A DNA stretch of 35,006 nt from a virus (lineage: Duplodnaviria; Heunggongvirae; Uroviricota; Caudoviricetes): the IMG/VR virus record IMGVR_UViG_2778261448_000009, positions 1 through 35,006 of that record; one strand, written 5' to 3'. How positions within the stretch are numbered: the first letter of the stretch is position 1; every line of letters starts with the position of its first letter. The notes below the pieces were generated by a model. The model was not told the origin of the DNA. It worked only from the letters and a program-made list of their open reading frames with translations, and searched no databases. Shown here in pieces: positions 1-34,695 of this stretch. Both the position numbers and the translations under genes were made by a program.

Positions 1-942
1 TTATTGGCAGTAAGAAAAGTTAGTACCATACATTTCATCATGAAGCATTGCAGCATTGCGTTTCTGTTCTTCTTCCTCGTCTTCTACATCACTAGAGAAA
101 TAGGATTTTCCCTTGAAGGAACGAAGCAATTGCAGTGCAGCCATCGGATCACGCATCACATCGATTTTCACTTCTACTTCATCATTTGCGGCCTCATCAG
201 CCGCGTTTTCAACTACTGCTACCGGAGCAACTTCTTTAGCTTTCAGTTCTTCAATCTCAGATTTCTGTGCTTCAATAATCTGGTCTTTTTCTTCCAGTGC
301 AGCTTTCAGTTCTGCGATCTGTGCTTCCAGTGCAGCAAAGCGATCTTCAACAACAGGAGAAACAGCATTAACCTGTGCTTCCAGTTCCAGAAATGCTTCG
401 CAAGATTCAATACGTTCTTTCTCTTCACCTTCATAAGCAACCAGTTCTACAACTTCTTTTTCGGTAGCGTGGCTGTTAAAGAATACAGCAAAGTAAGGAT
501 TGCCGGATTTAGTGAAGTTCAGTTTAGCTTTTCCGGTAACTTCTTTACGACGACCGAAGGTGATCTGGCAATCAGCGGTATCCTGAAAATCCATGTTAGG
601 AGCGGAAACGATAGCAGTATCACCAGCAATAACCAGGTGGAACAGTTCAGAAGAGTTCTTAACGGTGAAAGTAACGATGTGGTCTACTGCAACGTCTTTA
701 GCAGGTTTAACGCGGTCGATTGCTTTACGAATGCCGTTAGGCAGTTTACCGTCAACACCAAAGCCAGCCGCGATCAGTGCTTCACGATGTGCTTTAAAGC
801 CAGCGAAAGCGGATTTCTGCTGTGCAAAGGAAACATGAGCAACAACTTTCGGCTGAATCTTCTTGTTTGCTTCGGTTCCAAATTTGATAACTGCTTTAGC
901 GTTGGTTACTTCGTTAGTGAAAAAGTTAGCGGAAAATAACAT
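1..942 (-). CDS. hypothetical protein, 313 aa: N-terminal globular region, central coiled-coil (AALEAQIAELKAALEEKDQIIEAQKSEIEELKAK), acidic C-terminal stretch
   Basis: Complete minus-strand ORF; revcomp shows AGGAG 8 nt before the ATG at 942-940 and a TAA stop at 3-1. The plus-strand ORF 4-939 is low-complexity antisense. Function not recognised. Confidence 0.6.
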   Translation of the reverse strand: MLFSANFFTNEVTNAKAVIKFGTEANKKIQPKVVAHVSFAQQKSAFAGFKAHREALIAAGFGVDGKLPNGIRKAIDRVKPAKDVAVDHIVTFTVKNSSELFHLVIAGDTAIVSAPNMDFQDTADCQITFGRRKEVTGKAKLNFTKSGNPYFAVFFNSHATEKEVVELVAYEGEEKERIESCEAFLELEAQVNAVSPVVEDRFAALEAQIAELKAALEEKDQIIEAQKSEIEELKAKEVAPVAVVENAADEAANDEVEVKIDVMRDPMAALQLLRSFKGKSYFSSDVEDEEEEQKRNAAMLHDEMYGTNFSYCQ

Positions 943-988
943 TATAAATACTCCTGTGGAAAGTTAGTTTTAATTGTTCATCGCAAAA

Positions 989-1025
989 GCCTCCTTGTTG
1001 CCGCAAGGGGGCTTTTTTATTTTTA
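989..1025. terminator. hairpin flanked by T-runs on both strands (possible bidirectional rho-independent terminator)
   Basis: 9-bp stem GCCTCCTTG/CAAGGGGGC with one G-U wobble, 6-nt loop, then TTTTTTATTTTT on the plus strand; the minus strand has TTTT after the stem. Confidence 0.5.
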
Positions 1026-1056
1026 AAGCCATCATATAATTCTCAGTGAAAGGTTA

Positions 1057-1239
1057 TTACCACACCTCTGCGGTAATCTTTACGCGAATATCATACTTCT
1101 TTAAGAGTTTATGAAAGGTTGATTTATCGATACCCTCATTTTTAAACCACTCTTCAATTCTCACACCCGGCGTTAACTCAAAGTAGCGTTTAGCCATTTC
1201 TAAGATGATTTCGCGAGTGAACTTAACAGGTCGTGCCAT
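1057..1239 (-). CDS. small helix-turn-helix-like DNA-binding protein, 60 aa
   Basis: Complete ORF with TAA stop; the segment GIDKSTFHKLLKKYDIRV looks like an HTH recognition helix. Function inferred from the motif only. Confidence 0.45.
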   Translation of the reverse strand: MARPVKFTREIILEMAKRYFELTPGVRIEEWFKNEGIDKSTFHKLLKKYDIRVKITAEVW

Positions 1240-1702
1240 CTCGAATCCTCCTACAATGTGGATTAATGATTTCTTAAAAAAGAGCGTTAACCGCTCACTA
1301 TTATTTATATGGGGATTGTATTTTATTTTTCAACCCCTCACATTTATCTCTTATATATGTATTTATAACAGAGATATGTTAAAATGTTATTCAGATGTTA
1401 TCAGACGTGTTAAATGTGTTAAACCGCAGCACGAATTGCTAAAGCGGAGAGCACGAATTAACCAAATTGATGTATATTCAATCAATTTAGAAAAAGGCAT
1501 AGCACTTTTTGCTAAAGCGGTGAGCATTAATTGAGCTATGAATTGTAAAGATTTGTTACAAGATTTTCTCTCAGATCCAAATCTTCACAGACATATAACA
1601 ATTTAACACGGTGATAACAATAGGAAGGAAAATCGGTAAATTTTCACTTTCAATACAAATATTATAACATATTTATCTCTAATTGTCAAGTGTAGCACCG
1701 AT

Positions 1703-1751
1703 CCTACACAGTGTCAACAAAGGATTTTCAAACCTACACTAGCCCTACACT
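1703..1751. repeat. CCTACAC repeats (3 copies) with a GTGTAG/CTACAC dyad
   Basis: CCTACAC at about 1703, 1733 and 1744; dyad AGTGTAG-caccgatc-CTACACA at about 1690-1712. Confidence 0.5.
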
Positions 1752-1758
1752 ATGAAAA

Positions 1759-1933
1759 TTGCCCCTGAATTTTGCCCCTGAACCAAAATCCCCTAGATTT
1801 CACTATCCCATTTTTGCCCCTGAAACCTACTATTTTTGCCCCTGAAAATCTAATTTTTGCCCCTGAAATTTGCCCCCGAAAAGGATTGGTGAGAAAAACT
1901 CTTTATAAAACATTAACTTAGTGAGGGGCAAAA
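1759..1933. repeat. iteron array: six direct copies of TTGCCCC(T/C)GAA plus one inverted near-copy
   Basis: Copies start at 1759, 1772, 1814, 1836, 1857 and 1870 (spacings 13, 42, 22, 21, 13 bp); a degenerate copy TCCCCTAGA at about 1790; inverted copy GAGGGGCAAAA at 1923-1933. No ORF overlaps. Confidence 0.8.
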
Positions 1934-2064
1934 CGGGGAATCGGGCGTGCATAGATATTATATAACACATTCGCTACGCTCATGTGTAAAACCAAAAACA
2001 ACAAATAACCAAAAAGATATTAGGAGGGCTTTGCCCGACTGCGCGAAGCGCCAACCAATTGCTT

Positions 2065-2304
2065 CTAGTAACAACTAATTTAAACTAGATGATACTAGAT
2101 GGTCTTAGAAGGAATTAACTAGTTTGCTCGCTCGCTTCGCTCACTCTCAAACGTCTGCGACGCCACTGCGTGGCATCGAGAATCACTTCTGAAAGGATTT
2201 TCTTGAAAGGGATTTTAAACTAGTTACTAACTGATTCTAGAAAGATAGTAATAATCACTTTGAAGATAATAGTAGTTAACTGGTTACTAGATGATTCTAG
2301 ATCA
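2065..2304. repeat. CTAG-rich repeat cluster (8 CTAG in about 240 bp) with direct repeats ACTAGATGAT and TGATTCTAGA, interleaved with GC-rich dyads
   Basis: CTAG at 2065, 2085, 2095, 2119, 2220, 2237, 2287 and 2297; ACTAGATGAT at 2084 and 2286; TGATTCTAGA at 2232 and 2292; GCGAAGCG (2045) inverted as CGCTTCGC (2133); GCCACtgcGTGGC at about 2162-2174. Confidence 0.75.
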
Positions 2305-2330
2305 CTTTAATGATCATGAAAGGTATTGGT

Positions 2331-2359
2331 ATCCCTTCGGGATTGCAACCTTCGGTTGC
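2331..2359 (+). other. two adjacent stem-loops with UUCG tetraloops (candidate RNA structural element in the leader of the 2562 gene)
   Basis: ATCCC-TTCG-GGGAT at 2331-2343 and GCAACC-TTCG-GGTTGC at 2345-2359; no U-run follows, so it is not a classical terminator. Confidence 0.45.
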
Positions 2360-2561
2360 TAAATTGCTTCCGGATTATTATTTCTCCAAAAGAAAGATTC
2401 TTATATTCTAAAGATACTTCTTCGTTTTGATGATGATTTAATCAAAATCTATGAAGGAGGCGAAGCCGACTGAATACCAATTCCTTTCAAATTAGACAAA
2501 AATTTCTCGTTATAAATAATAGTGAACTTACTTTGATTCACTTTTTTAGAGGATTTCCACT

Positions 2562-3011
2562 ATGATCAATACTAAAACTCCTTTCATTCTTCTGGGTCTG
2601 AACCATGATGATAATCTGGCTATGATGCATGTTTTCGCTAATCGTGGTTATAACATCATTCGTCATTCCGAAGACTCCAATTTCTCAACTGCTTTCTATG
2701 CTCTTAAACGTAATGGTCGCCCTACGGTGATCGTAGACTGCTTTACTGATGAAGGTCGTGAACAATACAACAACATTCCGGCAATTATTGTTCGTGATGA
2801 CCTGCCGTTTGATGTTCGTGAATATGACGTTGATTTAGGCTCTTACTATGGGATCGCCGATCTTGACCAGATTATGGCTGATTATGGTAAACAACCCGCT
2901 CAGGAAGCCCCAGAACACGATGAACAAGACGAAGATGACGACTACACACCAATCTGTTTCTCTTCTCACGGTGGCTTCTACGGTTACGATGAAGGCTTAG
3001 ATATGCTGTAA
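2562..3011 (+). CDS. hypothetical strongly acidic protein, 149 aa (candidate early anti-restriction or DNA-mimic protein, speculative)
   Basis: GAGG-type RBS before the ATG; I count about 29 D/E against 10 K/R, with a C-terminal EAPEHDEQDEDDDY cluster; first ORF downstream of the 1.3 kb noncoding region. Confidence 0.6.
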   Translation: MINTKTPFILLGLNHDDNLAMMHVFANRGYNIIRHSEDSNFSTAFYALKRNGRPTVIVDCFTDEGREQYNNIPAIIVRDDLPFDVREYDVDLGSYYGIADLDQIMADYGKQPAQEAPEHDEQDEDDDYTPICFSSHGGFYGYDEGLDML

Positions 3012-3046
3012 TTTAGGTCAACCCTTTGGCGTCTTGTCAAGGGGTA

Positions 3047-3075
3047 TTGACAAAATTTTCTGACTTTTTTATGAT
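3047..3075 (+). promoter_or_regulatory. sigma70-like promoter: TTGACA, 17-bp spacer, TATGAT
   Basis: Exact -35 hexamer at 3047-3052 and near-consensus -10 at 3070-3075; further TTGACA/TTGTCA boxes at 3034 and 3084; lies upstream of the 3132 gene. Confidence 0.5.
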
Positions 3076-3131
3076 TATCGCACTTGACAACTTTGAACCT
3101 ATTTGACCTAGATTTGTAAAGAGGATGTAAC

Positions 3132-3464
3132 ATGAAAGAATTTACCATCACTAAATCCCTGTATGACTGGACTGTTAAAATCTCCGGCAAAACCGTTTCT
3201 GTAAGCCCTAGCCATGTAGAAAATGATTGGGGCGTATCCCGTGAAACTATCTCCCGTAGTATGCATGTTCCGTTTGATCTGATGTCCTTAACTGGTATTC
3301 ATGCAATGCTGGAAGTTCGCGAACAATTCGAAGCTGGTAATCACAATGCGACTCCAGTTAACAATCACCTTCTTACTAATGAAGAACGTGAAATCATCGA
3401 AAACTGGCGTTATGAATATGCGATTCCTTATTATGAAGAAGATCAGGTAGAAATCGATTGGTAA
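3132..3464 (+). CDS. hypothetical acidic protein, 110 aa, with an HTH-like segment (GVSRETISRSM); weak candidate for a small terminase or regulator
   Basis: RBS AGAGGA before the ATG; TAA stop; no recognisable family by eye. Confidence 0.5.
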   Translation: MKEFTITKSLYDWTVKISGKTVSVSPSHVENDWGVSRETISRSMHVPFDLMSLTGIHAMLEVREQFEAGNHNATPVNNHLLTNEEREIIENWRYEYAIPYYEEDQVEIDW

Positions 3465-3565
3465 TAAATTTCTATTATAAATAAAATTGTTCCGCGCGCC
3501 GTTGGCGTGTGGACAGTTAAAAACAGGAGAATCAATCACTAAACCGTTTAAGGGGAATTTTTACT

Positions 3566-4414
3566 ATGAATACTGTTACTACTATGAATACTGCTGTTAA
3601 AACTGCTTCCGTGTCTCTGGTTGTTGATAACACCAAACCGCTGACCATGTCTACTTTGCAGATCGCGGAATTAACCGGAAAGAATCATAAAGATGTTATG
3701 CGTGATTTTCGTAATATGGTTGATTCGCTTGAAAAGGGTAGCAAACTGGTCGGAGGAGATGAGCGCAATTTTGCGCCCATCGGTTTTTATAAAGAAACGA
3801 CTTATAAAGATTCTCTGAATCGTAATAAACCGATGTATGAACTGGATGAAGATCTCTGTAATACTCTGGTTATGGGATACGATGCACCGCTTCGCTTCAA
3901 AATTGCTAAAGAATGGCGTTTGATGAAAGAAGGTAAAGCTAATGTTCCGGTTAATCCATATGAACACTTTGAAGAAACAGACTGGATCGAACTGGCGTTA
4001 AAGAAAACTCGCGAAAACAAACAACTGATTGAACTTCATGTTCGCAAATCCGTAGATAGCCATTCTATGACACGTCTGTTAGGCGCTAAAAAGGGCGCTA
4101 CGAAGGTTAAAGAAGCACTGACGGCCTTGCGTACTGCTGGCTACATTGAGCGCGTCTATGATGAAAATAACAAGCCGTGTGGGTATGTTGCTAATGACTC
4201 TTCTCTGTCTTTCTGCCGCATGAATGCTCACTACCAACTTGAGTTTACTGTTGATGTTCTTCCTGTGTTGGTTGAATTGGGCATTTTGGAAGAAGAACAG
4301 AAAGCAACTCTTAAACTACCGCAGCCAAATAACACTATTCTGATTCAAAACAAAGCTGCTAAACAGATTCGTGAATCAGGTAACGTAATTTCCCTTGTTG
4401 ATTTTGGGATCTGA
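3566..4414 (+). CDS. Rha-family phage regulatory protein, 282 aa
   Basis: N-terminal segment LTMSTLQIAELTGKNHKDVMRDFRNM matches the signature I recall for the Rha (Phage_pRha) family; RBS AAGGGG before the ATG; TGA stop. Confidence 0.65.
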   Translation: MNTVTTMNTAVKTASVSLVVDNTKPLTMSTLQIAELTGKNHKDVMRDFRNMVDSLEKGSKLVGGDERNFAPIGFYKETTYKDSLNRNKPMYELDEDLCNTLVMGYDAPLRFKIAKEWRLMKEGKANVPVNPYEHFEETDWIELALKKTRENKQLIELHVRKSVDSHSMTRLLGAKKGATKVKEALTALRTAGYIERVYDENNKPCGYVANDSSLSFCRMNAHYQLEFTVDVLPVLVELGILEEEQKATLKLPQPNNTILIQNKAAKQIRESGNVISLVDFGI

Positions 4415-4420
4415 TTAATC

Positions 4421-4451
4421 GCCCGGCGCATAATTGCGCTGGGCTTTTTTG
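4421..4451 (+). terminator. rho-independent terminator after the Rha gene
   Basis: Stem GCCCGGCGC/GCGCTGGGC with one mismatch, loop ATAATT, then TTTTTT. Confidence 0.6.
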
Positions 4452-4462
4452 TATCTGATGCA

Positions 4463-4568
4463 TCCAGATTTGGATTTCTAGAAAGAATCAACCACTTAGA
4501 TAGATACGCTGAACTTTAAGCACATCCCCTCAGTTTTGAGGGCATCTATAGATCAGTCCAAATCTGGA
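4463..4568. repeat. perfect 12-bp inverted repeats TCCAGATTTGGA / TCCAAATCTGGA enclosing an 82-bp segment with an internal hairpin
   Basis: Arms at 4463-4474 and 4557-4568; internal hairpin CCCTCA-GTTT-TGAGGG at about 4528-4543; the element lies between two convergent terminators. Confidence 0.7.
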
Positions 4569-4610
4569 CTCAACTTAGAAATGAGCGCAGTTTTGCGCCG
4601 ATTGTTTTAC

Positions 4611-4638
4611 ATACAAAAAAGCCACTCCGAAGAGTGGC
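4611..4638 (-). terminator. rho-independent terminator for the minus-strand genes, UUCG loop
   Basis: Minus strand reads GCCACTC-TTCG-GAGTGGC followed by TTTTTT. Confidence 0.65.
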
Positions 4639-4653
4639 AAAGAGAATCAAAAC

Positions 4654-4887
4654 TCAAAAACCTGTTGCTTCTACGATCTGACCATCACCGATCTGAACAT
4701 AGAATTTAATGTCTAACTTCTTCATATTCTTATAGAATTGGGCGATTGAGATCCCATGTTCACTAAGAATCTGTTCTTTCGCTTCCTTACCACGATCCGC
4801 TGTATAGTAAGCGTAGGCAATATCAGCCATCTGTTCAGCGTTAAAACGGCAAGGACGACCGCGAGTAGCTTTAGTAGTCATAGTCAT
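4654..4887 (-). CDS. small putative DNA-binding protein, 77 aa
   Basis: Complete ORF ending in TGA; N-terminal TRGRPCRF and an HTH-like ISIAQFYKNMKKLDI segment. Confidence 0.5.
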   Translation of the reverse strand: MTMTTKATRGRPCRFNAEQMADIAYAYYTADRGKEAKEQILSEHGISIAQFYKNMKKLDIKFYVQIGDGQIVEATGF

Positions 4888-4915
4888 TTCTCCAAATTAA
4901 AGTGAATGTTCACCT

Positions 4916-5521
4916 TTATTTAGAGGACTTACATTTTATCGGAAAAAGTTCTCCATCGTCAATACTCATAAAGAACTCTACCTTAATCCCGTACTTCCTC
5001 AGCCGTGAATAATATGTACCCCGACTAATATCAACCTTGCGAAGCACTTCGAAGAACCCTGTAGGATCGTTGTAATAGTGGCTATATTTCACGTTAGCGA
5101 GTTCAACGAATAGTTCCCTTGTATCACCATAGCCTTTCTTGAAAGCCTCGTTACGATAGCGTGTAATTGCGTGATTCAATCTCTTCTGTTTCAACACTTC
5201 TCGGATCGGTGTCCACTGCAAACGATAGATAGGACCGTCATCCACTCGATAATAACGCTTGATATCAAAATCAAACCAATCTCGGACTCTCCGAAACTCT
5301 GTATGTGATGTTCTATGCTTCTTAAAGAAGTTGTGAACGTCTGTATAACCATTATCGCGGTAAAACTCTATTAAAATCTCTTTCGCTTCCTCACGACTAA
5401 AGCCAGATGTTGTGTAGTCGGTTTTTAAATGCTTATGCTTAACTGGCAAACGATATTCATGATCGGTACAACAAGACAAGGCTAATTCTACTTCATCTCT
5501 TTGTTGCTGATTAATTAGCAT
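4916..5521 (-). CDS. hypothetical basic protein, 201 aa, with HTH-like segments
   Basis: Complete ORF with TAA stop; segments such as [14 protein letters not shown] resemble the HTH of the 60-aa protein at 1057-1239; function unknown. Confidence 0.5.
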
Positions 5522-5606
5522 ACAACCCCCTTTAATTAATACCCGTATTTATCAAAATATCAACAATTTAATAAATACCTTCATATTTCGTAATGAGGGT
5601 AATTAC

Positions 5607-7511
5607 ATGAAACTGATTTCAAATAAGGCAAAATTAAAAAAGATTCTCAAAAATGCAGCCAAATATATTACGCCACCGCCTAAGCTCCTTCCTTCTGAAT
5701 GGTGCGAAGCGAATCTAACGCTAGTCGATGGTCCTCGTGCTGGGGATAAAGTTAAATTACTGTCATTTCAGAAAGGCATGATTGATGCTCCTTTCCTTGA
5801 GAAGAAAAAGAAGTACGTTTTTTGTACGAGTGCACAGATCGGAAAGACGACCATCATGTCAGGGATTATGTTTAACCAGATGGCAAACGATCCGTGTAAT
5901 ATCATTATCGGGCAAAGTACCGCTAAAGAAGTGGCTATGTACTTGAATACTAAGATCCGTCCTTCTATTGAAGCATGTCCGGCATTACAGGAAGTGGTAA
6001 CAGATAAGAATGATCGTAATGCGGTAAACAACAATAACCAGATTCAGCTAAAAACAAACCATTTCCTTTACATGGTTTCTTTGACCAGTCCTTCAAGTTT
6101 GCGCGGGCGTACTGCCAAGTTAGGGATTGTAGACGAATGCGACGCAGCAACAATCACCGAAGAAGGTTGCCCGGTGGCACTAACTGCAAACCGTTTAACT
6201 ACCTTTGGTGATGAAGCTCGATTGATTGTTTCTAGTACCCCGACCAATAAGCTGGGAATTATTAACCAGCAATGGTTATCAAGCGATATGCGTATGTTTT
6301 TTGTTCCGTGTCCTCATTGCGGGGAACACCAGGTGATCGAGTGGGAAAACGTACAGTTTGAATGGCGTAACATTGATGGTAAGAACTTACCCGATCCTGA
6401 TACCGCTCGTTATATTTGCCCCCACTGTAAGAACGCATGGACAGAAGGAGAGCGGATCAGGGCGGTGGCACAAGGAGAGTGGAGAGCAACCCGTGAAAGT
6501 GAAGTAGCAGGATTCTGGATCAGCCGTCTGTATTCACCTTTCAGCACGATCCGCGCTTGTGTGGTTGATTTTAGTCATGCGTGGCAATCCTTTGATTTAC
6601 AATCATTTTATAACACCGTGTTAGGCAAGGTATACGACGATCAGGACACGGCAGTAGAAGCAAATGAACTGGAACAACTCAAAACAGATGTTTCTATCGA
6701 GAATATCCCTGATGACGTGATTTTCTTGTGTGCGGGTACTGACCAGCAATTAGATCGCGCAGAAACTACAATCATGGGCGTGGCAAAGGATAAGATTTAT
6801 ATTCTGGATCATCGCAGCTTTTACGATCATAACTGTGAACGATATGAATCCCCTGTATGGGATAGATTAATCAACTTCCATAAAACCAAATTTACTACTG
6901 TATCGGGTGATCGTGTTCCTATGCTCGCCAGCTTCCTTGATACATCGAACGGTCGATTCACTCAAGCCGGATACCGTATTTGCGGCAAGTGGAAGAACTT
7001 ACACGCTATCAAAGGTAGTTCTGCTGGTAACGCTCCGATCATTCCGGTTAAACCTACCCGCACAGGTGGTCATGAATTGCTTATGTTGGGTGTTAACGTG
7101 GGTAAAACTGCATTTCGTGAAATGTTGGCTAGGAACCTGAAAGATAATCCTCATATTAGCTTAGAAATATCAGACACCGTTCCTGATGATTATTTCGATC
7201 AGCTTTTAAGTGAATCTGTTAAGCGTACTACTACTGGCGTGAGATGGGTAAAGAACCCAGGCGTTAGGAACGAGGCGCTCGACTGCGCCGTGTATGCTAC
7301 AGCGGCTTCTCGCTACGTTCTTTCAAAAATGTCATGGGATAAACTCATTGCAATGAAAGACAGCTTAAACCGTGTTGTCGAAGAACCCGTAAAAGCTCCT
7401 AAATCGCAATCTAACGAGCAAATCGAAGAAACTAAGCCAATCACACGACCACAACGTCAAAACATCGCCAGACGTCCAAATAGAGGACGTAGCTGGATAA
7501 CATCGTTCTAA
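5607..7511 (+). CDS. terminase large subunit, lambda GpA family, 634 aa
   Basis: Motifs shared with my recollection of lambda gpA: CPHCGEHQV (lambda ACPHCGEEQ), [14 protein letters not shown] (lambda YSPFTT), [10 protein letters not shown] (lambda GIDSQLDRYE), [15 protein letters not shown] (lambda RRNEALDCFVYALAA). RBS GAGGG before the ATG. Confidence 0.85.
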
Positions 7512-8088: not shown

Positions 8089-9600
8089 ATGTTTAATCTT
8101 TTTCGACGCAAAAAGGCGGTAGAAACTCCAGTTAAAACTAATCACCGCCAGCAACAACAAAAAATCTTTATCGACAAACAAGTAGAAAAATTCCAGAAAG
8201 ATTTGTCTAAGCGTTCTTTGGGCTTAGTCGGTGATCGTATTGATGGATCACTTCAACAAGACACCATTACAGGAACCTTCAATAAGGCTCTCAAATCAAA
8301 CGGTAAGCGCCTTTATGATCAGGGTCGTACTCTGGCCTTAAACACTTCCGTAGGCAGTCGCTACACGCAATACATCACCGATATGGTGGTAGGTACTGGC
8401 CTAGATCCGAAGCCATCAATCGTTAAATCAAATGGCAAACTTGATAGCGCACTGAATAAGCAGATCGAGAATGCTTTCTGGAAGTGGGCGCAGAACGCTA
8501 AACGCTTCTCTCGCAATGGTCGCTTTAACTTCCGTGAACTGCTGGTAATGGCTGAACGTGAGCGCGTTATGGGTGGTGAGTGCTTCATCGTTTTAACCAA
8601 AGAAAACAATGAGTTAAATGTTTCCATCCTGTCTGCTGATAAGTGCGACTGGTCGCTAAACCGTGAAGTAAGCAAAGAACGTGCTATCTATCAGGGGATC
8701 GAGTATGACGTAGAAACAATGAAGCCAGTAGCATACTGGTTTCGTAAAATCAACCTACTGACTCAGACTTACACAGGTGATAACTATCGCGTAGATGCAT
8801 CGCAAGTATGCCATTATTATCAACCACTTACAGCCGAATCCCTGCGTGGTGTGACTGACTTCCTGCCAGTGATCAAGGATATCGCACATCAAGACGCATT
8901 CCGCGAAACTGCAATTATCCAGAAACGTATTGCGGCTAGTTCTATGGGCTTTATCGAACGTCCGAAAGATTCTGGTGACGATTTTGATACTGGTGAAGAG
9001 GATGAACAATATCAAGCGCCGGAAGTAGTACAGGATTTTGCACCTGGTACTATTCAGGAATTACCGGAAGGGGCAACGATCAAGAGCATCCAGGCGACGC
9101 AAAGCGGTGATGACTTCAATTCCTTTAACGATGCGATGTTTACTAGCGTATCAATGGGCTTAGGCGTGTTTAAACAGGGCTTAACTGGCGATACTAGCCA
9201 AATAAATTACAGCGCTGCACGCTACGGCGAATTACTTCAAAGAACGCGCGTTAAAGCACTGCAAAACAAATTGATTGAAACAGTGGTGTCGCCCATTTTC
9301 GAAGCATATCTACGCCATTATTCCGCGCGTGGTATTGTTCCGATTCGTATTACTGCAATTCCACATATTATCGATAATACAACTATTATTCGTCCGCGTT
9401 TTGAATCCGTCGATCCATTTAAAGACGTAAGCGCCGAGATTGCTTTAATTGATAAAGGACTTAAATCACGTACTGCCGTTATTCTTGAACGTGGTGATGA
9501 TCCTGAAAAAGTATTCTCAGAGATTCAAGCCGAAAAGAGCGCACTAAATATTATCGTTAATGGCGAGGGTGAAGAAAAAAATTCCCCAGCCGATCCCTAA
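8089..9600 (+). CDS. portal protein, 503 aa
   Basis: Position immediately after terminase and before the protease-capsid gene; size typical of lambda-family portals; acidic C-terminal tail. Confidence 0.7.
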   Translation: MFNLFRRKKAVETPVKTNHRQQQQKIFIDKQVEKFQKDLSKRSLGLVGDRIDGSLQQDTITGTFNKALKSNGKRLYDQGRTLALNTSVGSRYTQYITDMVVGTGLDPKPSIVKSNGKLDSALNKQIENAFWKWAQNAKRFSRNGRFNFRELLVMAERERVMGGECFIVLTKENNELNVSILSADKCDWSLNREVSKERAIYQGIEYDVETMKPVAYWFRKINLLTQTYTGDNYRVDASQVCHYYQPLTAESLRGVTDFLPVIKDIAHQDAFRETAIIQKRIAASSMGFIERPKDSGDDFDTGEEDEQYQAPEVVQDFAPGTIQELPEGATIKSIQATQSGDDFNSFNDAMFTSVSMGLGVFKQGLTGDTSQINYSAARYGELLQRTRVKALQNKLIETVVSPIFEAYLRHYSARGIVPIRITAIPHIIDNTTIIRPRFESVDPFKDVSAEIALIDKGLKSRTAVILERGDDPEKVFSEIQAEKSALNIIVNGEGEEKNSPADP

Positions 9601-11807: not shown

Positions 11808-12098
11808 ATGTTCAAATTATCAGAATCACAATTATCAAGAATGTTTAAGAGTGCTCCTGTATTTGTGGTGGAAGGTGGTAAATCAATTCGTGCTTATCAT
11901 GAAATTACTACTACCGACGAATCAGGTGTAATGACAGAAACCGAATTTCTATTCTGTCGTGAGGGAGACTTAAAGCAAGGTGATATTGTCACAGTAGAAA
12001 ACCAGCGTTTCAAAGTTCAATACGTTAAGCGCAATGGTGACAATACTTGTGATTGCTTTATCACTTTAGCAGGGGGTACACATGCTCGCTACCGTTAA
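11808..12098 (+). CDS. hypothetical head-tail joining protein, 96 aa (lambda FII position)
   Basis: RBS AAGGGGGTAACT before the ATG; assignment by synteny only. Confidence 0.4.
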   Translation: MFKLSESQLSRMFKSAPVFVVEGGKSIRAYHEITTTDESGVMTETEFLFCREGDLKQGDIVTVENQRFKVQYVKRNGDNTCDCFITLAGGTHARYR

Positions 12099-12504
12099 TA
12101 ATATGCCGAGACTGAAAATCAAACGCGCCTTGCAAGATATTATCGAACAAGATTTAGGTCTGGCTTTAAACGTAGAACAAACTCAGCAAGGCTTTAGTGA
12201 TGACGTGGTTTGTTGGATTACTGGCATGAATGAAACTTATACGCGTGTTCGTGGTGGTAATGCAATGCAAGCTGAATGCGTTATCGAAATGCAATTATAT
12301 TCTCAGATTCATGAAACCAAAATTCATGAGGGTATTTGCCAGATAATCCAGATTCAGCCGGATAACCCACGTTTTAAAGATTTGGGCTTCTCAATTTCAG
12401 ATATCACTCCAGTAGCTTCTAATACCGATTATGACGATGATTCTAGTGATGGGGGTATCGTTGGGACACTTAGCCTTAAATTTTCTTATCTAGCGCGTTT
12501 TTAA
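12082..12504 (+). CDS. hypothetical head-tail or tail-completion protein, 140 aa (lambda Z/U position)
   Basis: Overlaps the upstream gene by 17 nt; AGGGGG before the ATG; assignment by synteny only. Confidence 0.4.
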   Translation: MLATVNNMPRLKIKRALQDIIEQDLGLALNVEQTQQGFSDDVVCWITGMNETYTRVRGGNAMQAECVIEMQLYSQIHETKIHEGICQIIQIQPDNPRFKDLGFSISDITPVASNTDYDDDSSDGGIVGTLSLKFSYLARF

Positions 12505-13428: not shown

Positions 13429-16400
13429 ATGCAATCAATCCAATTTAAACGCACACAGACGGCTGGTAAAAAGCCGACGCCGGAACAATTATCACAGGGT
13501 GAAATCGCCTTACAGTTGGCGGATCATGTGATTTACACCAAAGACAAAAATAATAACGTAGTCCAAATTAGTGTTTCTCCAGAAAAACACGCTGAACTGA
13601 ATACGAAAGTAGACACCAACAAGGTCAATACAGATAAAGTCATTTCAGCAAATAAAACCGAAGCCGCTAATAATCTGGCTAGTGCTAAAGCTGAACTGAA
13701 TCAGACTATCACTTCTACCCGTGATACTCTCAATGCTTCAATCACTGCTGGCGATACCGCAGCCAACAAACGAATTGATGCTTTGACTACCACAGTAGGT
13801 AACAATAAAACCGAAGCGGCTAACGCTCTGGCGGCTGCTAAGACTGAACTGAATCAGACTATTACTTCAACCCGCGATACTATCAACGCGACAATTAACA
13901 AGAACAAGACAGATATTAATGCGCGAGTTGATCAGACGAATACCAACGTTACCAACTTAACGAATACTGTCGCAGCAAATAAATCAGCAATAGAAAAGAC
14001 GGTAGCGGATAATAAGAAAGATGCGGACACGAAGATCACCAATCTTACTAGTACGGTCTCTGCGAATAAGACGGCCATTGAAAGAACTGTTGCAAATAAC
14101 AAGGCCAGTGCCGATGCCGCAATTGCCGCAGCTAATCAGCGAATTGATTCGATTGAAGGTAGTGCCGATGCTGCTTACATCAAGAAGAATACCAACACTT
14201 ACCATCACGGCTATCTGTTAACCAAAACAGCTAACTATTTGGAAGACCAGACAGCGAGAGATCTTAACTACTTTGGTGCTTTCCGTACCAATGGTCAAGA
14301 TGGACTCATGGATCTAACTCTTAACGTTCCTCACTCTGCCGGCAAAGCGCACGGTCGCGGATTTACTTTCCGTTATGCGTCTGGTGGATCTCGTGTTGAA
14401 ACCTATGGTTTTGATAGAGAAGGACAGAAGAACTTTAGCTATAAGATGTATCACGAAGGTGATAAGCCGACTCCTGGCGAGATTGGTGCATACACCAAAG
14501 CCGAAGTTGATAAGATGTTTGTTAAAAACGTCGTTATGTCTGTTCCCAATTCTAGCGAAAACGTATCTGCATATTTCAAATTGGCAACCGCAACAATTCC
14601 ACAAAACGGGCGTAGTGTGTTTTTCCGTATTCATGGTGGTAATGGTTACAACGTTACGGCATATGACCAAGTTGATGTAGTAGAAATTCTTCTCCGTAGT
14701 GGTAACGATAGACCTAAAGGTCTTAACGTAATTGCATACCGTAGAAATACAAACAAAGATTTTGAGGTATTTGCTGTCAATACTTCCGGTGATAACTATG
14801 ATATCTACGTGAAATATCAGCGTTATACCGATAACGTTATTGTCGAATATGGGAAATCTGTTTATGTAAGTTTGACGGTTTATGATACGCCGGAAGCCAC
14901 GTTAATTAAACCTTCCGTTGGTGTTATCGGTGGTCGCAACGTAACTCTTTTTAACACAGAAAATAAACGTGGTGTGTTGAGTTTTGACGATAACACACAA
15001 AATAGTTATGATATTGTTCACTTGAGTAATGATAGGGGTACTGGTCGGAAATATATTCGTAAATTCCGTAGCAACTATAACGAAATGATCTGGCATGAGA
15101 CGGTTCAAGGTTCTACTTATCGACTCGCCACGGGTAGTACAGATTCTCAGGAGATTCTATCCGTTGAATCTAGTAGCTCTATTGCTGGGACTCATAAAGG
15201 TAATATTCTTTCTGGTCGAATGATGTTGGGTGGCGGTAGTAATGTTATTACCTTGCGGCGTCCTGCTGGTCAATCCAACCATATTGCGTTTCAAGATAAT
15301 CGGACTGGAGATATTACCCGTCAAGGGTGGATCGGTTATGGTAATGCTGATACTAACGTTTTTGAATGGTATAGTGATGTAGGTGGTACTTCTATTCGTC
15401 ACCACATAGACGGACAGATCGAATTTCAGACAGGTAACACAAAACGAGTTTATACTAACGCTCAATTCATCTCAATGAATAGCGACGCCTACCGCATGAT
15501 CTACGGTAATTATGGTGCATTCTGGCGTAATGACGGCAATAAAGTTTATCTTCTTTCTACTGCCGAAAATGATAAATTGGGCGGATGGAATGGAAACAGA
15601 CCGTTCATTTACGATTTGACTAACGGTAAAGTTACTTTAGGCGGTGATGGTAACGAAGGTGCATTAGTTCTTGAAAGAGATAGCCGTGCTGCCCGTTTTA
15701 GCAACAATGTATTCTTAGAAAAAGGACTGCTTACTTTCTCTGCTGGTGGAAATCAGTCGATGGATTCTTTTACGATTAACCATTGGGGGAATAGTAATGC
15801 CAATCGATATAACGTTTTGCAATTCCAGGACACTAGCGGAACTCACTTTACTACAGAACGTAACGGTACTGGTGGCTTACTTGCTCATTTCCGAGGGGAT
15901 TTAACTACCGAAGGAAAATTAACGTGGGGCAAAAATACAGCTACTTCTAGCTTTAATATCCGTGCGTGGGGTGCTGATGCTCGTAAACAAGTATTCGAAT
16001 GTGCGGACGAAAGCGGTTGGCACTGGTACACACAACGACCGGGCGGTCCGGGTACTGAATTAATCGAGTTTGCCATCAACGGTACTGTTAAACCTAAAGC
16101 AATTCACACTGGCGGTAATATCACGCTTAACGGTGCTGATATTGAGTTTCGTCGCAGTGGCAATAAGCATTTGTGGTTTAGAGATCCAAATGGCTTAGAA
16201 TTGGGTCTGTTGTACTGCGATGATGCTGGCGTTATGCGTATGCGCGGTGAGAAACAAACCGAAGTCTGGAAATTCGGCGGTAAGATGATTCACCTTGAAA
16301 CGGGCACTGTATCCGGTGGCGGTAATGGTCTTATTCGTGGTAGCGTTGCTGGTGGTAGTTGGGCTAGCTGGCGTGATCGTGCTTCTGGTATTCAGGTCGA

Positions 16401-16965
16401 TTGTCAACAATCAACCGATTCCGCTCATAACGTATGGAAAGCAACCCATCAAGGTAAATATCATATCGCAGCAATGGGTGTACATGTTCCTAGCGGTACT
16501 ATCGGTAACGCTACAGTTAAACTTCATGTTCATGACGCTGGTTTTGACTTTAACGCTGCTGGTGACTTTACCGCAGGTCGTAACGGTTCGTTTAACGATG
16601 TTTACATTCGCTCTGACTCCCGTTTGAAGATTAACAAGGAAGAATTACAGGACGGTGCATTAGAGAAAGTAAACTCCCTGAAAGTATACTCTTACGATAA
16701 AGTTAAATCTCTTTCCGATGACACAGTGATTAAACGCGAAGTAGGTATTATTGCTCAGGATCTGGAAAAAGTATTACCGGAAGCAGTAGGTATTCAATCC
16801 ACCGAAGATCCAGAACATCCAGAAGCAATCAAGACTATTTCTAACTCTGCTGTCAATGCTTTAATCATCAAAGCAATGCAGGAAATGACCGCTAAGTTTG
16901 ATGCTATGGCTAAAGAACTTGCCGAAACTAAAGCTGAATTAGCCGAACTGAAAGCAACTAAATAA
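13429..16965 (+). CDS. side tail fibre, 1178 aa, with C-terminal intramolecular chaperone (peptidase S74-like) domain
   Basis: N-terminus MQSIQFKRTQTAGKKPTPEQLSQGEIALQLADHVIY; tandem about 50-aa repeats (NKTEAAN-LA-AK-ELNQTITSTRDT) at nt about 13650-13900; C-terminal SDSRLKINKEELQDG...VGIIAQDLEKVLPEAV followed by a coiled coil, as in self-cleaving fibre chaperone domains. Confidence 0.75.
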   Translation: MQSIQFKRTQTAGKKPTPEQLSQGEIALQLADHVIYTKDKNNNVVQISVSPEKHAELNTKVDTNKVNTDKVISANKTEAANNLASAKAELNQTITSTRDTLNASITAGDTAANKRIDALTTTVGNNKTEAANALAAAKTELNQTITSTRDTINATINKNKTDINARVDQTNTNVTNLTNTVAANKSAIEKTVADNKKDADTKITNLTSTVSANKTAIERTVANNKASADAAIAAANQRIDSIEGSADAAYIKKNTNTYHHGYLLTKTANYLEDQTARDLNYFGAFRTNGQDGLMDLTLNVPHSAGKAHGRGFTFRYASGGSRVETYGFDREGQKNFSYKMYHEGDKPTPGEIGAYTKAEVDKMFVKNVVMSVPNSSENVSAYFKLATATIPQNGRSVFFRIHGGNGYNVTAYDQVDVVEILLRSGNDRPKGLNVIAYRRNTNKDFEVFAVNTSGDNYDIYVKYQRYTDNVIVEYGKSVYVSLTVYDTPEATLIKPSVGVIGGRNVTLFNTENKRGVLSFDDNTQNSYDIVHLSNDRGTGRKYIRKFRSNYNEMIWHETVQGSTYRLATGSTDSQEILSVESSSSIAGTHKGNILSGRMMLGGGSNVITLRRPAGQSNHIAFQDNRTGDITRQGWIGYGNADTNVFEWYSDVGGTSIRHHIDGQIEFQTGNTKRVYTNAQFISMNSDAYRMIYGNYGAFWRNDGNKVYLLSTAENDKLGGWNGNRPFIYDLTNGKVTLGGDGNEGALVLERDSRAARFSNNVFLEKGLLTFSAGGNQSMDSFTINHWGNSNANRYNVLQFQDTSGTHFTTERNGTGGLLAHFRGDLTTEGKLTWGKNTATSSFNIRAWGADARKQVFECADESGWHWYTQRPGGPGTELIEFAINGTVKPKAIHTGGNITLNGADIEFRRSGNKHLWFRDPNGLELGLLYCDDAGVMRMRGEKQTEVWKFGGKMIHLETGTVSGGGNGLIRGSVAGGSWASWRDRASGIQVDCQQSTDSAHNVWKATHQGKYHIAAMGVHVPSGTIGNATVKLHVHDAGFDFNAAGDFTAGRNGSFNDVYIRSDSRLKINKEELQDGALEKVNSLKVYSYDKVKSLSDDTVIKREVGIIAQDLEKVLPEAVGIQSTEDPEHPEAIKTISNSAVNALIIKAMQEMTAKFDAMAKELAETKAELAELKATK

Positions 16966-17663: not shown

Positions 17664-18170
17664 ATGGCGAATGTCGTTAATAAGCCTGGCTGGGTCGGGT
17701 CATCTGCTGTTTCTGTAACTGGTCAACGATGGATGAGCGCAGCAATGAACGCATTAAAGGTTAGTCGCCCAGCTAACATGAGTGCGATGTGTGGTCGTGG
17801 TATGGATACGGTTGTAGCTACTGCTGCGTGGACTACTTCATTGGGTAATAACTGGGGTGTAACTGCTTCAAACTATCCAGTAACTGACATGCGCGGTAAA
17901 GGATCTATGGAGAACCCCGAAAACGTGGGCGTAGGGCGTCTGATTGGCGTTATCGTTGGTCAATTCAATGGTGGTACTCCTACTATGGCTGTATATCTCC
18001 AGAACGGTAGAGCGGGGAATATAACCGTTAATTTGGGTGGTGCTGCTGTCACTGTTCCTTATAACAGTATGCAAAGTGGTTTTCATTACTATTGGTTAAG
18101 CAATCCTCCGGCTGCTTTCCTAACAAATATTAAGAAGGCTGGCACTAAGCAGACTTTGAAAATCTCTTAA
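17664..18170 (+). CDS. hypothetical structural protein, 168 aa
   Basis: RBS GGAG before the ATG; sits between the tube and chaperone genes; Gly/Thr/Val-rich, beta-rich composition; no family recognised. Confidence 0.4.
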   Translation: MANVVNKPGWVGSSAVSVTGQRWMSAAMNALKVSRPANMSAMCGRGMDTVVATAAWTTSLGNNWGVTASNYPVTDMRGKGSMENPENVGVGRLIGVIVGQFNGGTPTMAVYLQNGRAGNITVNLGGAAVTVPYNSMQSGFHYYWLSNPPAAFLTNIKKAGTKQTLKIS

Positions 18171-21270: not shown

Positions 21271-21315
21271 AGCCCCCATAGTCATAAATAATCATAAAAC
21301 TATGGGGGCTTTTCT
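21271..21315 (+). terminator. long hairpin after the tape measure gene whose 3' arm contains the Shine-Dalgarno of the next gene
   Basis: 11-bp perfect stem AGCCCCCATAG/CTATGGGGGCT with an 18-nt loop, then TTTTCT, then ATG at 21316; GGGGG at 21304-21308 lies in the stem. Confidence 0.5.
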
Positions 21316-28030: not shown

Positions 28031-28068
28031 TCCATAAATACCCTCATAGAATCTTATGGGGGTATAAC

Positions 28069-28810: not shown

Positions 28811-30301
28811 TTATATAGCAATTGTTTTAGTTGCATAGCTGAACTTGTCGGTTAGATAATAGCGGATTCTCTCAAGTGCATGTTTTACCGCATAATTTTT
28901 ATGCTTGACTTTTCCGTTACGACCGAATATACACAGATGATCTATAAGATCCCAGACCGTTGCAATATCCTTAGAACCATGTTTACGCAATGCACGACCG
29001 ATACTCTGACGAACGATAGTTGATTCCTTCACGGGATGACCGAAAATAACATGGTGCAAATTCTTAATTGAAACACCAGTAGAGAAAACACCATAGGAAG
29101 CAACACAAATGATCCCTGTTTCCCCTTCCGCTAATTTCTTAAATTCATCACGTTCTTCTGTCTTAACTCCACCGTCAATATAATAAACCTTGTCGTGTAC
29201 CTTCTGTAACGCGTCATACATAAGTTTTCCGTGCTTAGTATTGCGGAACATCAGGAATACGTTTTCGCCCTTCTTAGCGAGTTTTAGCGCCAAATTACAA
29301 GCAAACTTATTACGTCGTGGGTTAGACGTAATATACTTGATCTCTTCCGCATATTCTCTACCCTTAACCGCGCTACATTCCTCATCGGTATAACGAAGGA
29401 AAAGACAGTTGATTTTCAGTTTCGTCACTTGACCTTCTTCCATCAGGCGGTCAATACTCACGATCTTAGAAATATCACCGAAAAGACCGACATACTGTAA
29501 AAGATGGCATTTTGATTCTTTAGGGGAACCAGTCATGCCGATTTTAAACTGGCAATGATTCATTCCGTTGATGATATTGGTAATATTTTTGGCACTAGCC
29601 TTATGTGATTCATCAACTATCAACATTCCATATTGTCGGAACCATTCAGGAGGCATCTTGCAAGCTGATTGCCATGTTGAAACAGTGATTAGCCTATCTC
29701 CCGGATGTTTCCCGCTACCACTCATCATTGTATGAATTGCTTCATAAGGGAATAACCGATAATCGATGAAATCATCCCTCATTTGAACCACTAGCGATGT
29801 AGTAGGGACAATGATTAACACTTTTCCGGTGTAGTTCTCTAAGTACCAACGAGACAGCATACAAGCAATCAATGACTTACCCGCACTGGTAGGAAGAACC
29901 AGCATTCTACGGCGATTATGAATACCCTGAAAGACTGCCTCCCTTTGATACCAGTAAGGATTGATTTTATTGGAACCGGAATACACTTCTAGGGAATCAA
30001 TCCATTCATTAATCGCGTCTTTGGTTACATCTTCCTTCTCAAGCAATCGCGGGTCAATCCAGACTGAATAGCCCATATTTTTAACGAAGACACCCAACGT
30101 TTTTAATAGTCCAATTGGTAGGGTATTTTCATGCGTAAACAGTCTTATTCGTCCATCCCAGCCGGAATACTTGTAGCGGGGGCTAAACCTAGCCCCTTCA
30201 ACCTCAAACGAGAAATAATCCCTTAATTCCATTCCGATAGAAGGAGAGCAATCAACCTTAACGAAACTGTAATCTTGAAAATGAATTTTAATATCTTGCA
30301 T
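28811..30301 (-). CDS. uvsW: UvsW-like SF2 DNA helicase (T4 UvsW homolog), about 496 aa
   Basis: Near-collinear with T4 UvsW as I recall it: MQDIKIHFQDYSFVKVDC..., PYWYQREAVFQGIHNRRRMLVLPTSAGKS (Walker A), LIIVPTTSL, MLIVDESH (motif II), YIDGGV, ICVASYGVFSTGVSIKNLHHV, GRALRKHGSKDIATVWDLID. I place the start at the ATG at 30301-30299, overlapping the upstream stop as TAATG. Confidence 0.85.
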   Translation of the reverse strand: MQDIKIHFQDYSFVKVDCSPSIGMELRDYFSFEVEGARFSPRYKYSGWDGRIRLFTHENTLPIGLLKTLGVFVKNMGYSVWIDPRLLEKEDVTKDAINEWIDSLEVYSGSNKINPYWYQREAVFQGIHNRRRMLVLPTSAGKSLIACMLSRWYLENYTGKVLIIVPTTSLVVQMRDDFIDYRLFPYEAIHTMMSGSGKHPGDRLITVSTWQSACKMPPEWFRQYGMLIVDESHKASAKNITNIINGMNHCQFKIGMTGSPKESKCHLLQYVGLFGDISKIVSIDRLMEEGQVTKLKINCLFLRYTDEECSAVKGREYAEEIKYITSNPRRNKFACNLALKLAKKGENVFLMFRNTKHGKLMYDALQKVHDKVYYIDGGVKTEERDEFKKLAEGETGIICVASYGVFSTGVSIKNLHHVIFGHPVKESTIVRQSIGRALRKHGSKDIATVWDLIDHLCIFGRNGKVKHKNYAVKHALERIRYYLTDKFSYATKTIAI

Positions 30302-30870
30302 TAGTTCCACTCCACACTTGCAATATTCTTTATATTGTTTAGTGATTTATTGCAGTAGTGGAATGTTTCAGTTTTGCCGTATTCAATCCCGCCTATACCC
30401 ACATCCAGTAATCTCTTTATTGCTCTTTCAGTGGCTAAAGCATGTTTCATTGATGGCATTTCACCAGCAAAGACAATATCAAAGTTATGACCGGGATTGC
30501 GTACACCCAGATTAATGCGTCGCTTGATGATTGACTTTGTAACACCAAATTTACCAATATCCCCTGATTTCATTACATAGAGATAAGGCACACCCGCTTT
30601 ATATTGAAAGTAATCACTTTTGAGACATGCACAGCGTTTACCTTCATTAAGCAGGTTGGTAGCTGATTTGTCGGCTCTATTGCCGCATCGGGTACATGTA
30701 AGAGCAATTCTTGAATGAAGCCCTTTAAACTCACCCAGAAAGCCATGAAAGACTAACGGTAAGTCCTTCTCTTTGATGTGAGTCAGAATGCGTTGTTCTA
30801 ATGCCGATGGAGTTACAGCACGGGAGGATTTAGGAGTAAAAACAATATCTTTAGCCATTACTGGAATCAT
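30301..30870 (-). CDS. T5orf172-domain (GIY-YIG-like) protein with N-terminal zinc-ribbon-like CxxC pairs, 189 aa
   Basis: PYLYVMKSGDIGKFGVTKSIIKRRINLG fits the T5orf172 signature as I recall it; CTRCGN...CAC cysteine pairs; GAGG before the ATG; translationally coupled to the helicase gene. Confidence 0.55.
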   Translation of the reverse strand: MIPVMAKDIVFTPKSSRAVTPSALEQRILTHIKEKDLPLVFHGFLGEFKGLHSRIALTCTRCGNRADKSATNLLNEGKRCACLKSDYFQYKAGVPYLYVMKSGDIGKFGVTKSIIKRRINLGVRNPGHNFDIVFAGEMPSMKHALATERAIKRLLDVGIGGIEYGKTETFHYCNKSLNNIKNIASVEWN

Positions 30871-31023
30871 ATAGACCTCACTTTTTAACTTATAGGCATA
30901 ACCTCAATATGGTTGGTTTGGGATTTAGGGTCGCGTATTATACACATCCAGATAGAGAATGCAATAGTAAGACAATTTTCTCTAATAAATAGTAGTGATC
31001 TTATTATTTTAGAGGAAACTACT

Positions 31024-34429: not shown

Positions 34430-34695
34430 AGTAGAATTTCCTCTTGTTATTTGAATTACGATATATTTATATCATTAAAAATTGATGCTAATTACCAGAC
34501 CAAACACAACCGCACCAATCAAATCAATCCAGTTAATACACAATCCGCTATATTCTTTCTTGAATGTCTTAGATGAAATGCCATCATGAAATTGTTTCAT
34601 TGCTCAACCCATACTAACTACAAGATAAGAAAGACTAATCATGGTTGTGAGACTTCCTCCCACGAATGAGATAAAAGCTAACATGTTTGATTCTC

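Follow-up and report, generated by a model that had tools for sequence, protein, structure and literature searches.

In phage lambda, the terminase genes nu1 and A overlap and the packaging site, cos, lies ~190 bp upstream of nu1. The two subunit genes of phage P2, M for the small and P for the large subunit, are nonadjacent and belong to separate transcription units with capsid genes between them, and the P2 terminase is not of the GpA/Nu1 type. Repetitive extragenic palindromes and the mosaic elements that they form (REP/BIME) are arrays of short palindromes in alternating orientation that lie between convergent genes and vary among strains. Here we examine the region around the start of the large terminase gene (TerL) in a 35,006-nt stretch of DNA from a virus of the Caudoviricetes (IMG/VR record IMGVR_UViG_2778261448_000009, positions 1 to 35,006; hereafter the window), together with the two minus-strand genes that precede TerL, p77 and p201, and the spacer that separates them from the anti-repressor-like gene Rha. 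The terminase of this phage is lambda-like in both subunits but its two genes are split, the small-subunit gene lying beyond the left edge of the window, and the Rha-p77 spacer is a highly variable array of hairpins homologous to one that forms inside the Rha open reading frame (ORF). The features on which the argument depends are these:

1057-1239, minus strand: p60, third paralogue of the p77/p201 domain, found by profile alignment to p77
3566-4414, plus strand: Rha, an anti-repressor-like gene (PF09669, 62.5 bits vs a cut-off of 29.9)
4415-4653: spacer between Rha and p77, 239 bp
4654-4887, minus strand: p77, a 77-aa protein with a single copy of the domain that it shares with p201
4916-5521, minus strand: p201, an orphan 201-aa protein with two tandem repeats of three helices and a beta-hairpin, helix-turn-helix-like (HTH-like) in its AlphaFold model
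5522-5606: control region between p201 and TerL, 85 bp, 89-100% identical across relatives
5607-7511, plus strand: TerL, GpA-type large terminase (Pfam GpA_ATPase, E=2.9e-55; GpA_nuclease, E=4.7e-47)
8984-9538 of locus L022, plus strand, outside the window: Nu1-type small terminase, 184 aa, with a PHROG_57 match

TerL also matches PHROG_15 (E=6e-135) and heads a rightward block of structural and lysis genes of ~23 kb; its identity among relatives is 80-99% in the IMG/VR loci. None of the scanned ORFs of the window matched any small-terminase family. Position 1 of the window, however, is exactly the stop codon of its leftmost gene and is equivalent to position 10191 of L022, to the left of which lie three further prophage genes, including the small terminase candidate. 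This 184-aa protein matches the PHROG_57 profile, annotated as 'terminase small subunit', with E=5.3e-16 across 168 residues, and hhalign aligned it with lambda Nu1 at 96% probability (E=4.5e-9, 87 columns) across the winged-helix domain and the next helix. Against the PDB, the profile of its family retrieved the DNA-binding domains of small terminases (6hn7_B, 1j9i and 7lw0). The Pfam model Phage_Nu1 scores below its cut-off with the protein (15 bits vs 30), and probably because this model alone is sub-threshold most public records call the gene hypothetical, with only a few calling it a terminase small subunit.

The small terminase gene lies outside the left edge of the window at a distance of ~0.65-1.2 kb, which places it ~6.2 kb upstream of TerL. 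Together with the ~260-bp noncoding stretch that precedes it, the gene was matched in 64 E. coli genomes, in which the noncoding stretch is conserved, and in both genomes checked, DEC5A and 14EC007, it adjoins DNA homologous to the window. The latter is the closest genome to the window (95.7% over window positions 1-5606), and there the match to the small-terminase region begins ~250 bp past window position 1. The apparent lack of a small terminase is thus due to the window boundary, and a lambda-type large terminase without its small subunit, as the finding was first stated, is ordinary. Blocks of the noncoding stretch are shared by E. coli and Proteus, and because of the lambda arrangement we regard the stretch as a candidate cos; a 35.5-kb Logan contig ends inside the neighbouring gene and is uninformative on genome ends.

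The window itself covers most of an E. coli prophage of ~37 kb that a large serine recombinase integrated into ycdX. The region has chromosomal matches in 54-61 of 5426 complete E. coli genomes, whereas megablast against the phage and plasmid collections returned nothing close. KSC64 is an E. coli strain in which the prophage sits between the two halves of ycdX, with a large serine recombinase (PHROG_95 integrase) at its right end. The prophage family is carried by ~1% of complete E. coli genomes and has relatives in Salmonella and Proteus; our literature searches on this prophage returned nothing directly relevant.

As in lambda, TerL is of the GpA type with both domains, the small subunit has a Nu1-like N-terminal winged helix followed by a helical region, and a gene in the position of gpW, a lambda-type portal gene and a protease-capsid gene come after TerL. 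Unlike in lambda, the subunit genes are not adjacent: in E. coli and in Proteus, nine genes on both strands and 1.3 kb of noncoding DNA separate them over ~6.2 kb. The gene order is small terminase, p94, p313 and p60 (opposite strand), the 1.3-kb noncoding stretch, early genes, p77 and p201 (opposite strand) and TerL. Nonadjacent subunit genes in separate transcription units recall P2, although the intervening genes of the prophage are regulatory and those of P2 encode capsid proteins. A divergent E. coli lineage has the same order, as does Proteus columbae with a small terminase of 52% identity, and in Salmonella locus tags place the small terminase 8-9 genes away from p201. We found nothing directly relevant in the literature on split terminase genes and consider the split Nu1/gpA arrangement mildly novel. 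It matters for the automated annotation of terminases and cos sites and for the setting of prophage boundaries.

The only relative in the phage collection is DCP80, in its non-T4 part, where TerL is 44% and a Nu1-like gene 33% identical; this Nu1-like gene comes after the lysis genes, far from TerL. The DCP80 record (PQ671644.1; L001/L023) comprises 141 kb and is labelled as an Escherichia phage of the 'Tevenvirinae'. Its first ~26 kb carry a GpA terminase, a lambda-type portal and the Nu1-like gene related to the prophage family, and after ~26 kb it carries T4-like genes (motA, ndd and rIIA), so that, judged by gene content, two phages seem to have been assembled into one chimeric record.

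These results bear on an original prediction made from the window sequence alone. Its observation that two minus-strand genes rather than a small-terminase gene stand directly upstream of the GpA-type TerL is correct, and its expectation that the small subunit is encoded elsewhere was borne out by the Nu1-type gene. The two candidates that it proposed within the window, a 110-aa protein (p110) encoded at 3132 and p77 at 4654, match no terminase model. In addition, tblastn did not find p110 in 8 of the 19 relatives covering its position, and p77 is an HTH paralogue of p60 and p201 without similarity to terminases. The prediction had also named what would speak against an inserted or displaced element upstream of TerL: a recognisable small terminase elsewhere with its own packaging site, and an inverted repeat conserved only as flanking terminators. 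This is largely what we find, in that a recognisable small terminase with a conserved noncoding region before it lies elsewhere, and the inverted repeat is not conserved while the flanking terminators persist.

The p77-p201 pair is a stable part of the locus. IMG/VR yielded 20 loci with TerL, one of which (L016) is cut inside TerL; the other 19 all cover the position and have p77 and p201 at the same site and in the same orientation, as do 54 loci overall. The pair is also found directly upstream of TerL on the minus strand in Proteus and in the divergent E. coli lineage, and protein homologues are present in Salmonella. The identity of p201 is 88-96% among relatives and 65% in Proteus columbae. 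p77 falls into three allelic types, which are 95-100%, 71% and 57-66% identical to the p77 of the window; with the start codon chosen in public records, the protein has 74-75 aa. The prediction's description of the two genes as an insertion or a displaced element does not agree with this distribution.

Both families are restricted to Enterobacterales and lack a Pfam domain. The AlphaFold model of p201 (pLDDT 73) consists of two repeats, each of three helices and a beta-hairpin, and that of p77 (pLDDT 71) of one such unit; in profile alignments p77 matched residues 37-98 of p201 with a probability of 93% and p60 with one of 95%. For p201 and p77, no match was obtained with Pfam, PHROGs, NCBIfam or PADLOC, terminase models included, nor with defence-system models, and tblastn of the two proteins against the phage collection was likewise negative. 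Searches against PDB profiles returned no small terminase for either protein, and a hidden Markov model (HMM) of the p201 family searched against 1.84 billion representatives retrieved only its own family and fragments. Fold searches gave only weak generic HTH matches (Myb, CENP-B, Tc3, sigma region 4 and Mu C), none of them significant; no small-terminase fold was among the results, in which the best viral match had E=0.059, and the p201 model has no oligomerisation domain and does not show the fold of a small terminase.

These results indicate that p60, p77 and p201 form an orphan DNA-binding family of the helix-turn-helix plus beta-hairpin class. DNA-binding proteins that are divergent from the head of a late operon most simply regulate that operon, and we therefore infer that p201 and p77 are transcription regulators acting at the divergent region 5522-5606 and not terminase subunits. 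The late activators of the Mu C/Mor type are likewise divergently read phage regulators, but they share no sequence similarity and no significant fold similarity with p201 and p77, and only this phage group has the tandem-domain architecture and the three paralogues. The analysis thus defines a three-member orphan HTH family sited at a putative late promoter, which we consider mildly novel.

As the genes upstream of TerL run in the opposite direction, transcription of the 23-kb rightward block has to begin at a promoter within or close to 5522-5606. This control region holds one promoter-like ATAAATAC element for each of the divergent genes, and the 7-mer ATAAATA within it recurs elsewhere in the window. 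Seven gene starts have it 11-55 nt upstream, where 0.57 would be expected, and a count of seven was reached in 0 of 5000 shuffles; the genes preceded by it include p201, TerL, a tail-chaperone gene (18216) and the first gene of the lysis region (28069). The sites are:

1302-1308 and 1359-1366: ATAAATA(C) sites
2512-2518: ATAAATA(C) site
5545-5552: GTATTTAT, facing p201, 24 nt from its start codon
5571-5578: ATAAATAC, facing TerL, 29 nt from its start codon
18178-18185: ATAAATA(C) site
28034-28041: ATAAATA(C) site
34464-34470: ATAAATA(C) site

Judging from its sequence and placement, ATAAATA(C) is possibly a phage-specific promoter element. The pair GTATTTAT...ATAAATAC was also considered as an operator, but is better explained as two divergent copies of a promoter-like motif that recurs before other genes. 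The motif resembles the core of T4 late promoters, TATAAATA. An extra case of ATAAATA at 21284 lies within a terminator loop and may be coincidental.

The far side of the p77-p201 pair is bounded by the spacer, which contains the following:

4421-4444, plus strand: intrinsic terminator of Rha, resembling the in-ORF hairpin of the L032/L002-type Rha allele
4457-4619: array of five hairpin units (4462-4475, ~4500-4518, 4526-4549, 4549-4572 and 4578-4619)
4463-4474: left arm of the inverted repeat, TCCAGATTTGGA, part of unit 1
4528-4541: enclosed hairpin CCTCA-GTTT-TGAGG, between the arms
4557-4568: right arm of the inverted repeat, TCCAAATCTGGA, part of unit 4
4638-4621, minus strand: intrinsic terminator of the p201-p77 operon, of a hairpin type kept in most relatives' spacers

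The remaining relatives carry a second terminator type on the p77 side. The perfect 12-bp inverted repeats around a hairpin between two convergent terminators, which the original prediction had described, are present as stated: the arms match at 12 of 12 positions, and by our own estimate chance alone would produce ~0.002 such pairs in 239 bp. The RNA fold of the whole spacer has z = -7.3 relative to shuffles. Each arm is itself a small hairpin, with a stem of ATCCA/TGGAT or GTCCA/TGGAC and a 4-nt loop, so that the inverted repeat amounts to one palindromic unit present twice, with its loop flipped; L005 and L008 carry the two copies in direct orientation. Within the window array, units 1-2 are inverted and units 3-5 direct. 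A perfect inverted repeat can thus be a by-product of two palindromic units.

Each of the five units matches nucleotides 143-212 of Rha ORFs, with a different allele for each unit. Elsewhere in the window, hairpins of the array type occur only once, inside the Rha ORF at 3763-3776. The spacer occurs in 32 distinct versions in the 54 loci, with lengths of 79-813 bp. The nine shortest versions (79-88 bp) consist of the two terminators only, and the longer ones are arrays of short hairpins with variable 5-bp stems, a conserved 4-nt loop and short linkers; one stretch of unit 5 in the window (4585-4598) was called terminator-like. Apart from the window, only L019 has both arms of the inverted repeat, 158 nt apart from start to start instead of 94 nt. 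The 106-bp inverted repeat is therefore real but is neither a discrete nor a conserved element. Rfam, searched at gathering and E-value thresholds, contains no known RNA that matches it. The array shares with REP/BIME its mosaic character, alternating orientation, position between convergent genes and variability among strains; unlike in REP/BIME, its units are shorter, are confined to the Rha-p77 spacer and derive from a hairpin in a coding sequence, and no RAYT-type transposase is present.

Two of the longest spacer types carry an extra ORF, which makes the spacer a hotspot of gene gain and loss. These ORFs are located at 4447-5046 in L007 and at 4265-5065 in L015, and the one in L007 resembles the N-terminal domain of Rha.

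The Rha gene is highly mosaic, with 46-96% identity among relatives, and its internal hairpin is the source type of the spacer units:

3759-3782, plus strand: in-ORF hairpin GATG.AGCGCA-ATTT-TGCGC.CATC, followed by GGTTTTT

With its T run the structure spans 3759-3790 (approximately codons 56-70); up to 12 base pairs form the stem, which closes a 4-nt loop. Thirteen distinct Rha alleles form the hairpin in the same codon register, at an [N/K/S][F/S] codon pair of the Phage_pRha domain, the homologous positions being those of L028-L061. The alleles differ in stem sequence and in amino acids, and pairing is retained. Across the 11-pair structure, this retention compares with controls as follows:

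Cells paired: observed 81%; shuffled 59%; slid partners 32-49%
Pairs changed on both sides: observed 10 of 11; shuffled mean 6.6; slid partners 4-9
Covariation score: observed 0.60; shuffled 0.20 (observed score reached in 0 of 500); slid partners 0.07-0.17

A T-rich run follows the stem in most alleles, so that the structure looks like an intrinsic terminator within the gene, and both the Rha hairpin and the spacer units have the sequence features of one, a G+C-rich stem-loop with a T run. The length of the stem, the 4-nt loop and the T-rich run are as in known intrinsic terminators; unlike usual terminators and attenuators, the Rha hairpin lies within an ORF and changes its stem with the protein allele while keeping its pairing. 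By these features the hairpin may be an intragenic attenuator, and we infer a terminator or attenuator function for the hairpin and the spacer units alike. A literature search on intragenic terminators in anti-repressors found nothing directly relevant, and we consider the covarying Rha hairpin with its downstream copies mildly novel. It is a clear example of compensatory evolution of a terminator-like hairpin inside an anti-repressor gene, with copies piling up downstream, and offers a lead on how the expression of anti-repressors is gated.

The explanation that we find rather probable as a whole combines a split lambda-like terminase, p201 and p77 as regulators, and a filler spacer made of Rha-type hairpins. 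The window would truncate the prophage ~0.65 kb short of the Nu1-like gene, which the candidate cos would precede. With early and regulatory genes placed between the two terminase genes, TerL would open a new rightward operon, the promoter of which would lie within the conserved 85-bp gap; p201 and p77, transcribed divergently from the gap, would control the late operon and probably themselves. The gap between Rha and p77 would be neutral or insulating filler between converging transcripts, with two terminators as its minimal form, and in the window it would have gained five copies of the terminator-like Rha hairpin, two of which create the 12-bp inverted repeat. Several points weigh against this explanation. 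The small terminase is absent from the window, and its presence in the window's own genome is deduced from 61-64 related genomes with up to ~96% identity. The region upstream of the small terminase does not resemble lambda cos above the level of shuffles (local alignment score 23 vs a shuffle maximum of 24), and a simple sigma-70 scan of 5522-5606 found no strong rightward promoter. The covariation values come from an alignment anchored on the [NKS][FS] codon pair in which the best-pairing candidate was taken if there were several, a mild bias towards structure. Finally, the accumulation of only hairpin-sized pieces of Rha alleles in the spacer stays without explanation.

Part of this evidence could also be read as pointing to p201, alone or with p77, as a packaging protein, either a non-orthologous small terminase or an accessory protein that binds cos, with the packaging site in or near 5522-5606. 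That p201 always adjoins TerL, is conserved like TerL, is about the size of Nu1, has DNA-binding folds and lies beside a highly conserved 85-bp region would all fit such a role. The same prophage encodes a true Nu1 homologue, however, and neither the terminase profiles nor the HMM and fold searches connect p201 or p77 with small terminases, the p201 model lacking the oligomerisation domain; moreover, DCP80 has no tblastn match to p201 or p77 in the ~1.7 kb upstream of its TerL. We consider a packaging role decidedly improbable. A reading close to the original prediction, in which a recent insertion or a mobile element made up of the two genes and the inverted repeat displaced the small terminase gene, could draw on the opposite strand of p77 and p201 relative to their neighbours, on the inverted repeat on their far side and on the extra ORFs in the neighbouring spacer of L007 and L015. 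It is scarcely credible given that every relative covering the position has the pair, Proteus included, with homologues in Salmonella, and that the inverted repeat flanks the pair on one side only. As a mobile element with terminal repeats in its own right, 4463-4568 was rejected: the comparison of loci finds its arms in one other distinct spacer only (L019), at a different spacing. Around it there is no target-site duplication or flanking direct repeat in the sequence, and the window contains no other copy of it and no transposase.

For the array itself, the alternative to filler is function: copies of allele-specific Rha hairpins would act in trans on Rha transcripts, as decoys or as partners that alter termination, by a logic comparable to that of P4 CI RNA or P1/P7 c4 RNA. 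At least five different Rha alleles are the source of the units, which all stem from one and the same 70-nt segment, the hairpin from which they derive covaries and is therefore under selection, palindromic units could pair with targets in either orientation, and the spacer folds far better than chance. Nevertheless, the array lies between two terminators and has no predicted promoter, nine distinct minimal spacers do without it, which argues that it is dispensable, and no Rfam family matches it. A functional array therefore seems unlikely to us. Very doubtful is the more elaborate combination in which the Rha hairpin is an attenuator, the array is an inherited collection of copies that act in trans to adjust or shut off the anti-repressor expression of the resident phage and of superinfecting relatives, and p201 and p77 are specificity factors for a class of promoters marked by ATAAATAC; if it were true, the Rha array would be an RNA-level mechanism of cross-immunity. 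The reading of the spacer as filler, with p201 and p77 as regulators of a late operon headed by TerL, is thus the one that we retain.

The rest of the window is siphovirus-like, with a portal, a protease-capsid fusion, a tape measure and an endolysin; within the same set of genes the distal tail fibre is T4-like and is accompanied by an adhesin. The fibre gene (13429-16965) encodes a T4-type distal long tail fibre protein similar to gp37 (PHROG_1699, E=1e-141) and the adhesin gene (17664-18170) is gp38-like, and both are embedded in an otherwise lambda/HK97-like structural module. The sole recognisable DNA-metabolism genes, at 28811-32199, encode a DEAD/SNF2-like helicase, a 189-aa nuclease-like protein and a 428-aa GIY-YIG nuclease; nothing in the prophage was recognised as a replication initiator, a polymerase or a CI-type repressor. 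On the minus strand, ARAGORN calls a 91-nt tRNA-Gln at 12269-12359, within an ORF at 12082-12504; this call is probably a false positive, as no Rfam tRNA match reaches the gathering score.

The noncoding stretch between the divergent genes p60 and p149 (1240-2561) comprises 1.3 kb without a called gene. It contains seven iterons, TTTTGCCCCTGAA, at 1746-1880 with an inverted copy at 1924-1939, repeats of the CTAGATGAT type at 2083-2302, and a perfect 15-bp inverted repeat near its two ends (1295-1309 and 2511-2525). Such an arrangement of repeats makes the stretch a candidate for a replication origin or for a region that controls immunity. In most relatives the Rha terminator (TTTTTGCCCCTGAATTTCAGGGGC) likewise consists of the iteron motif.

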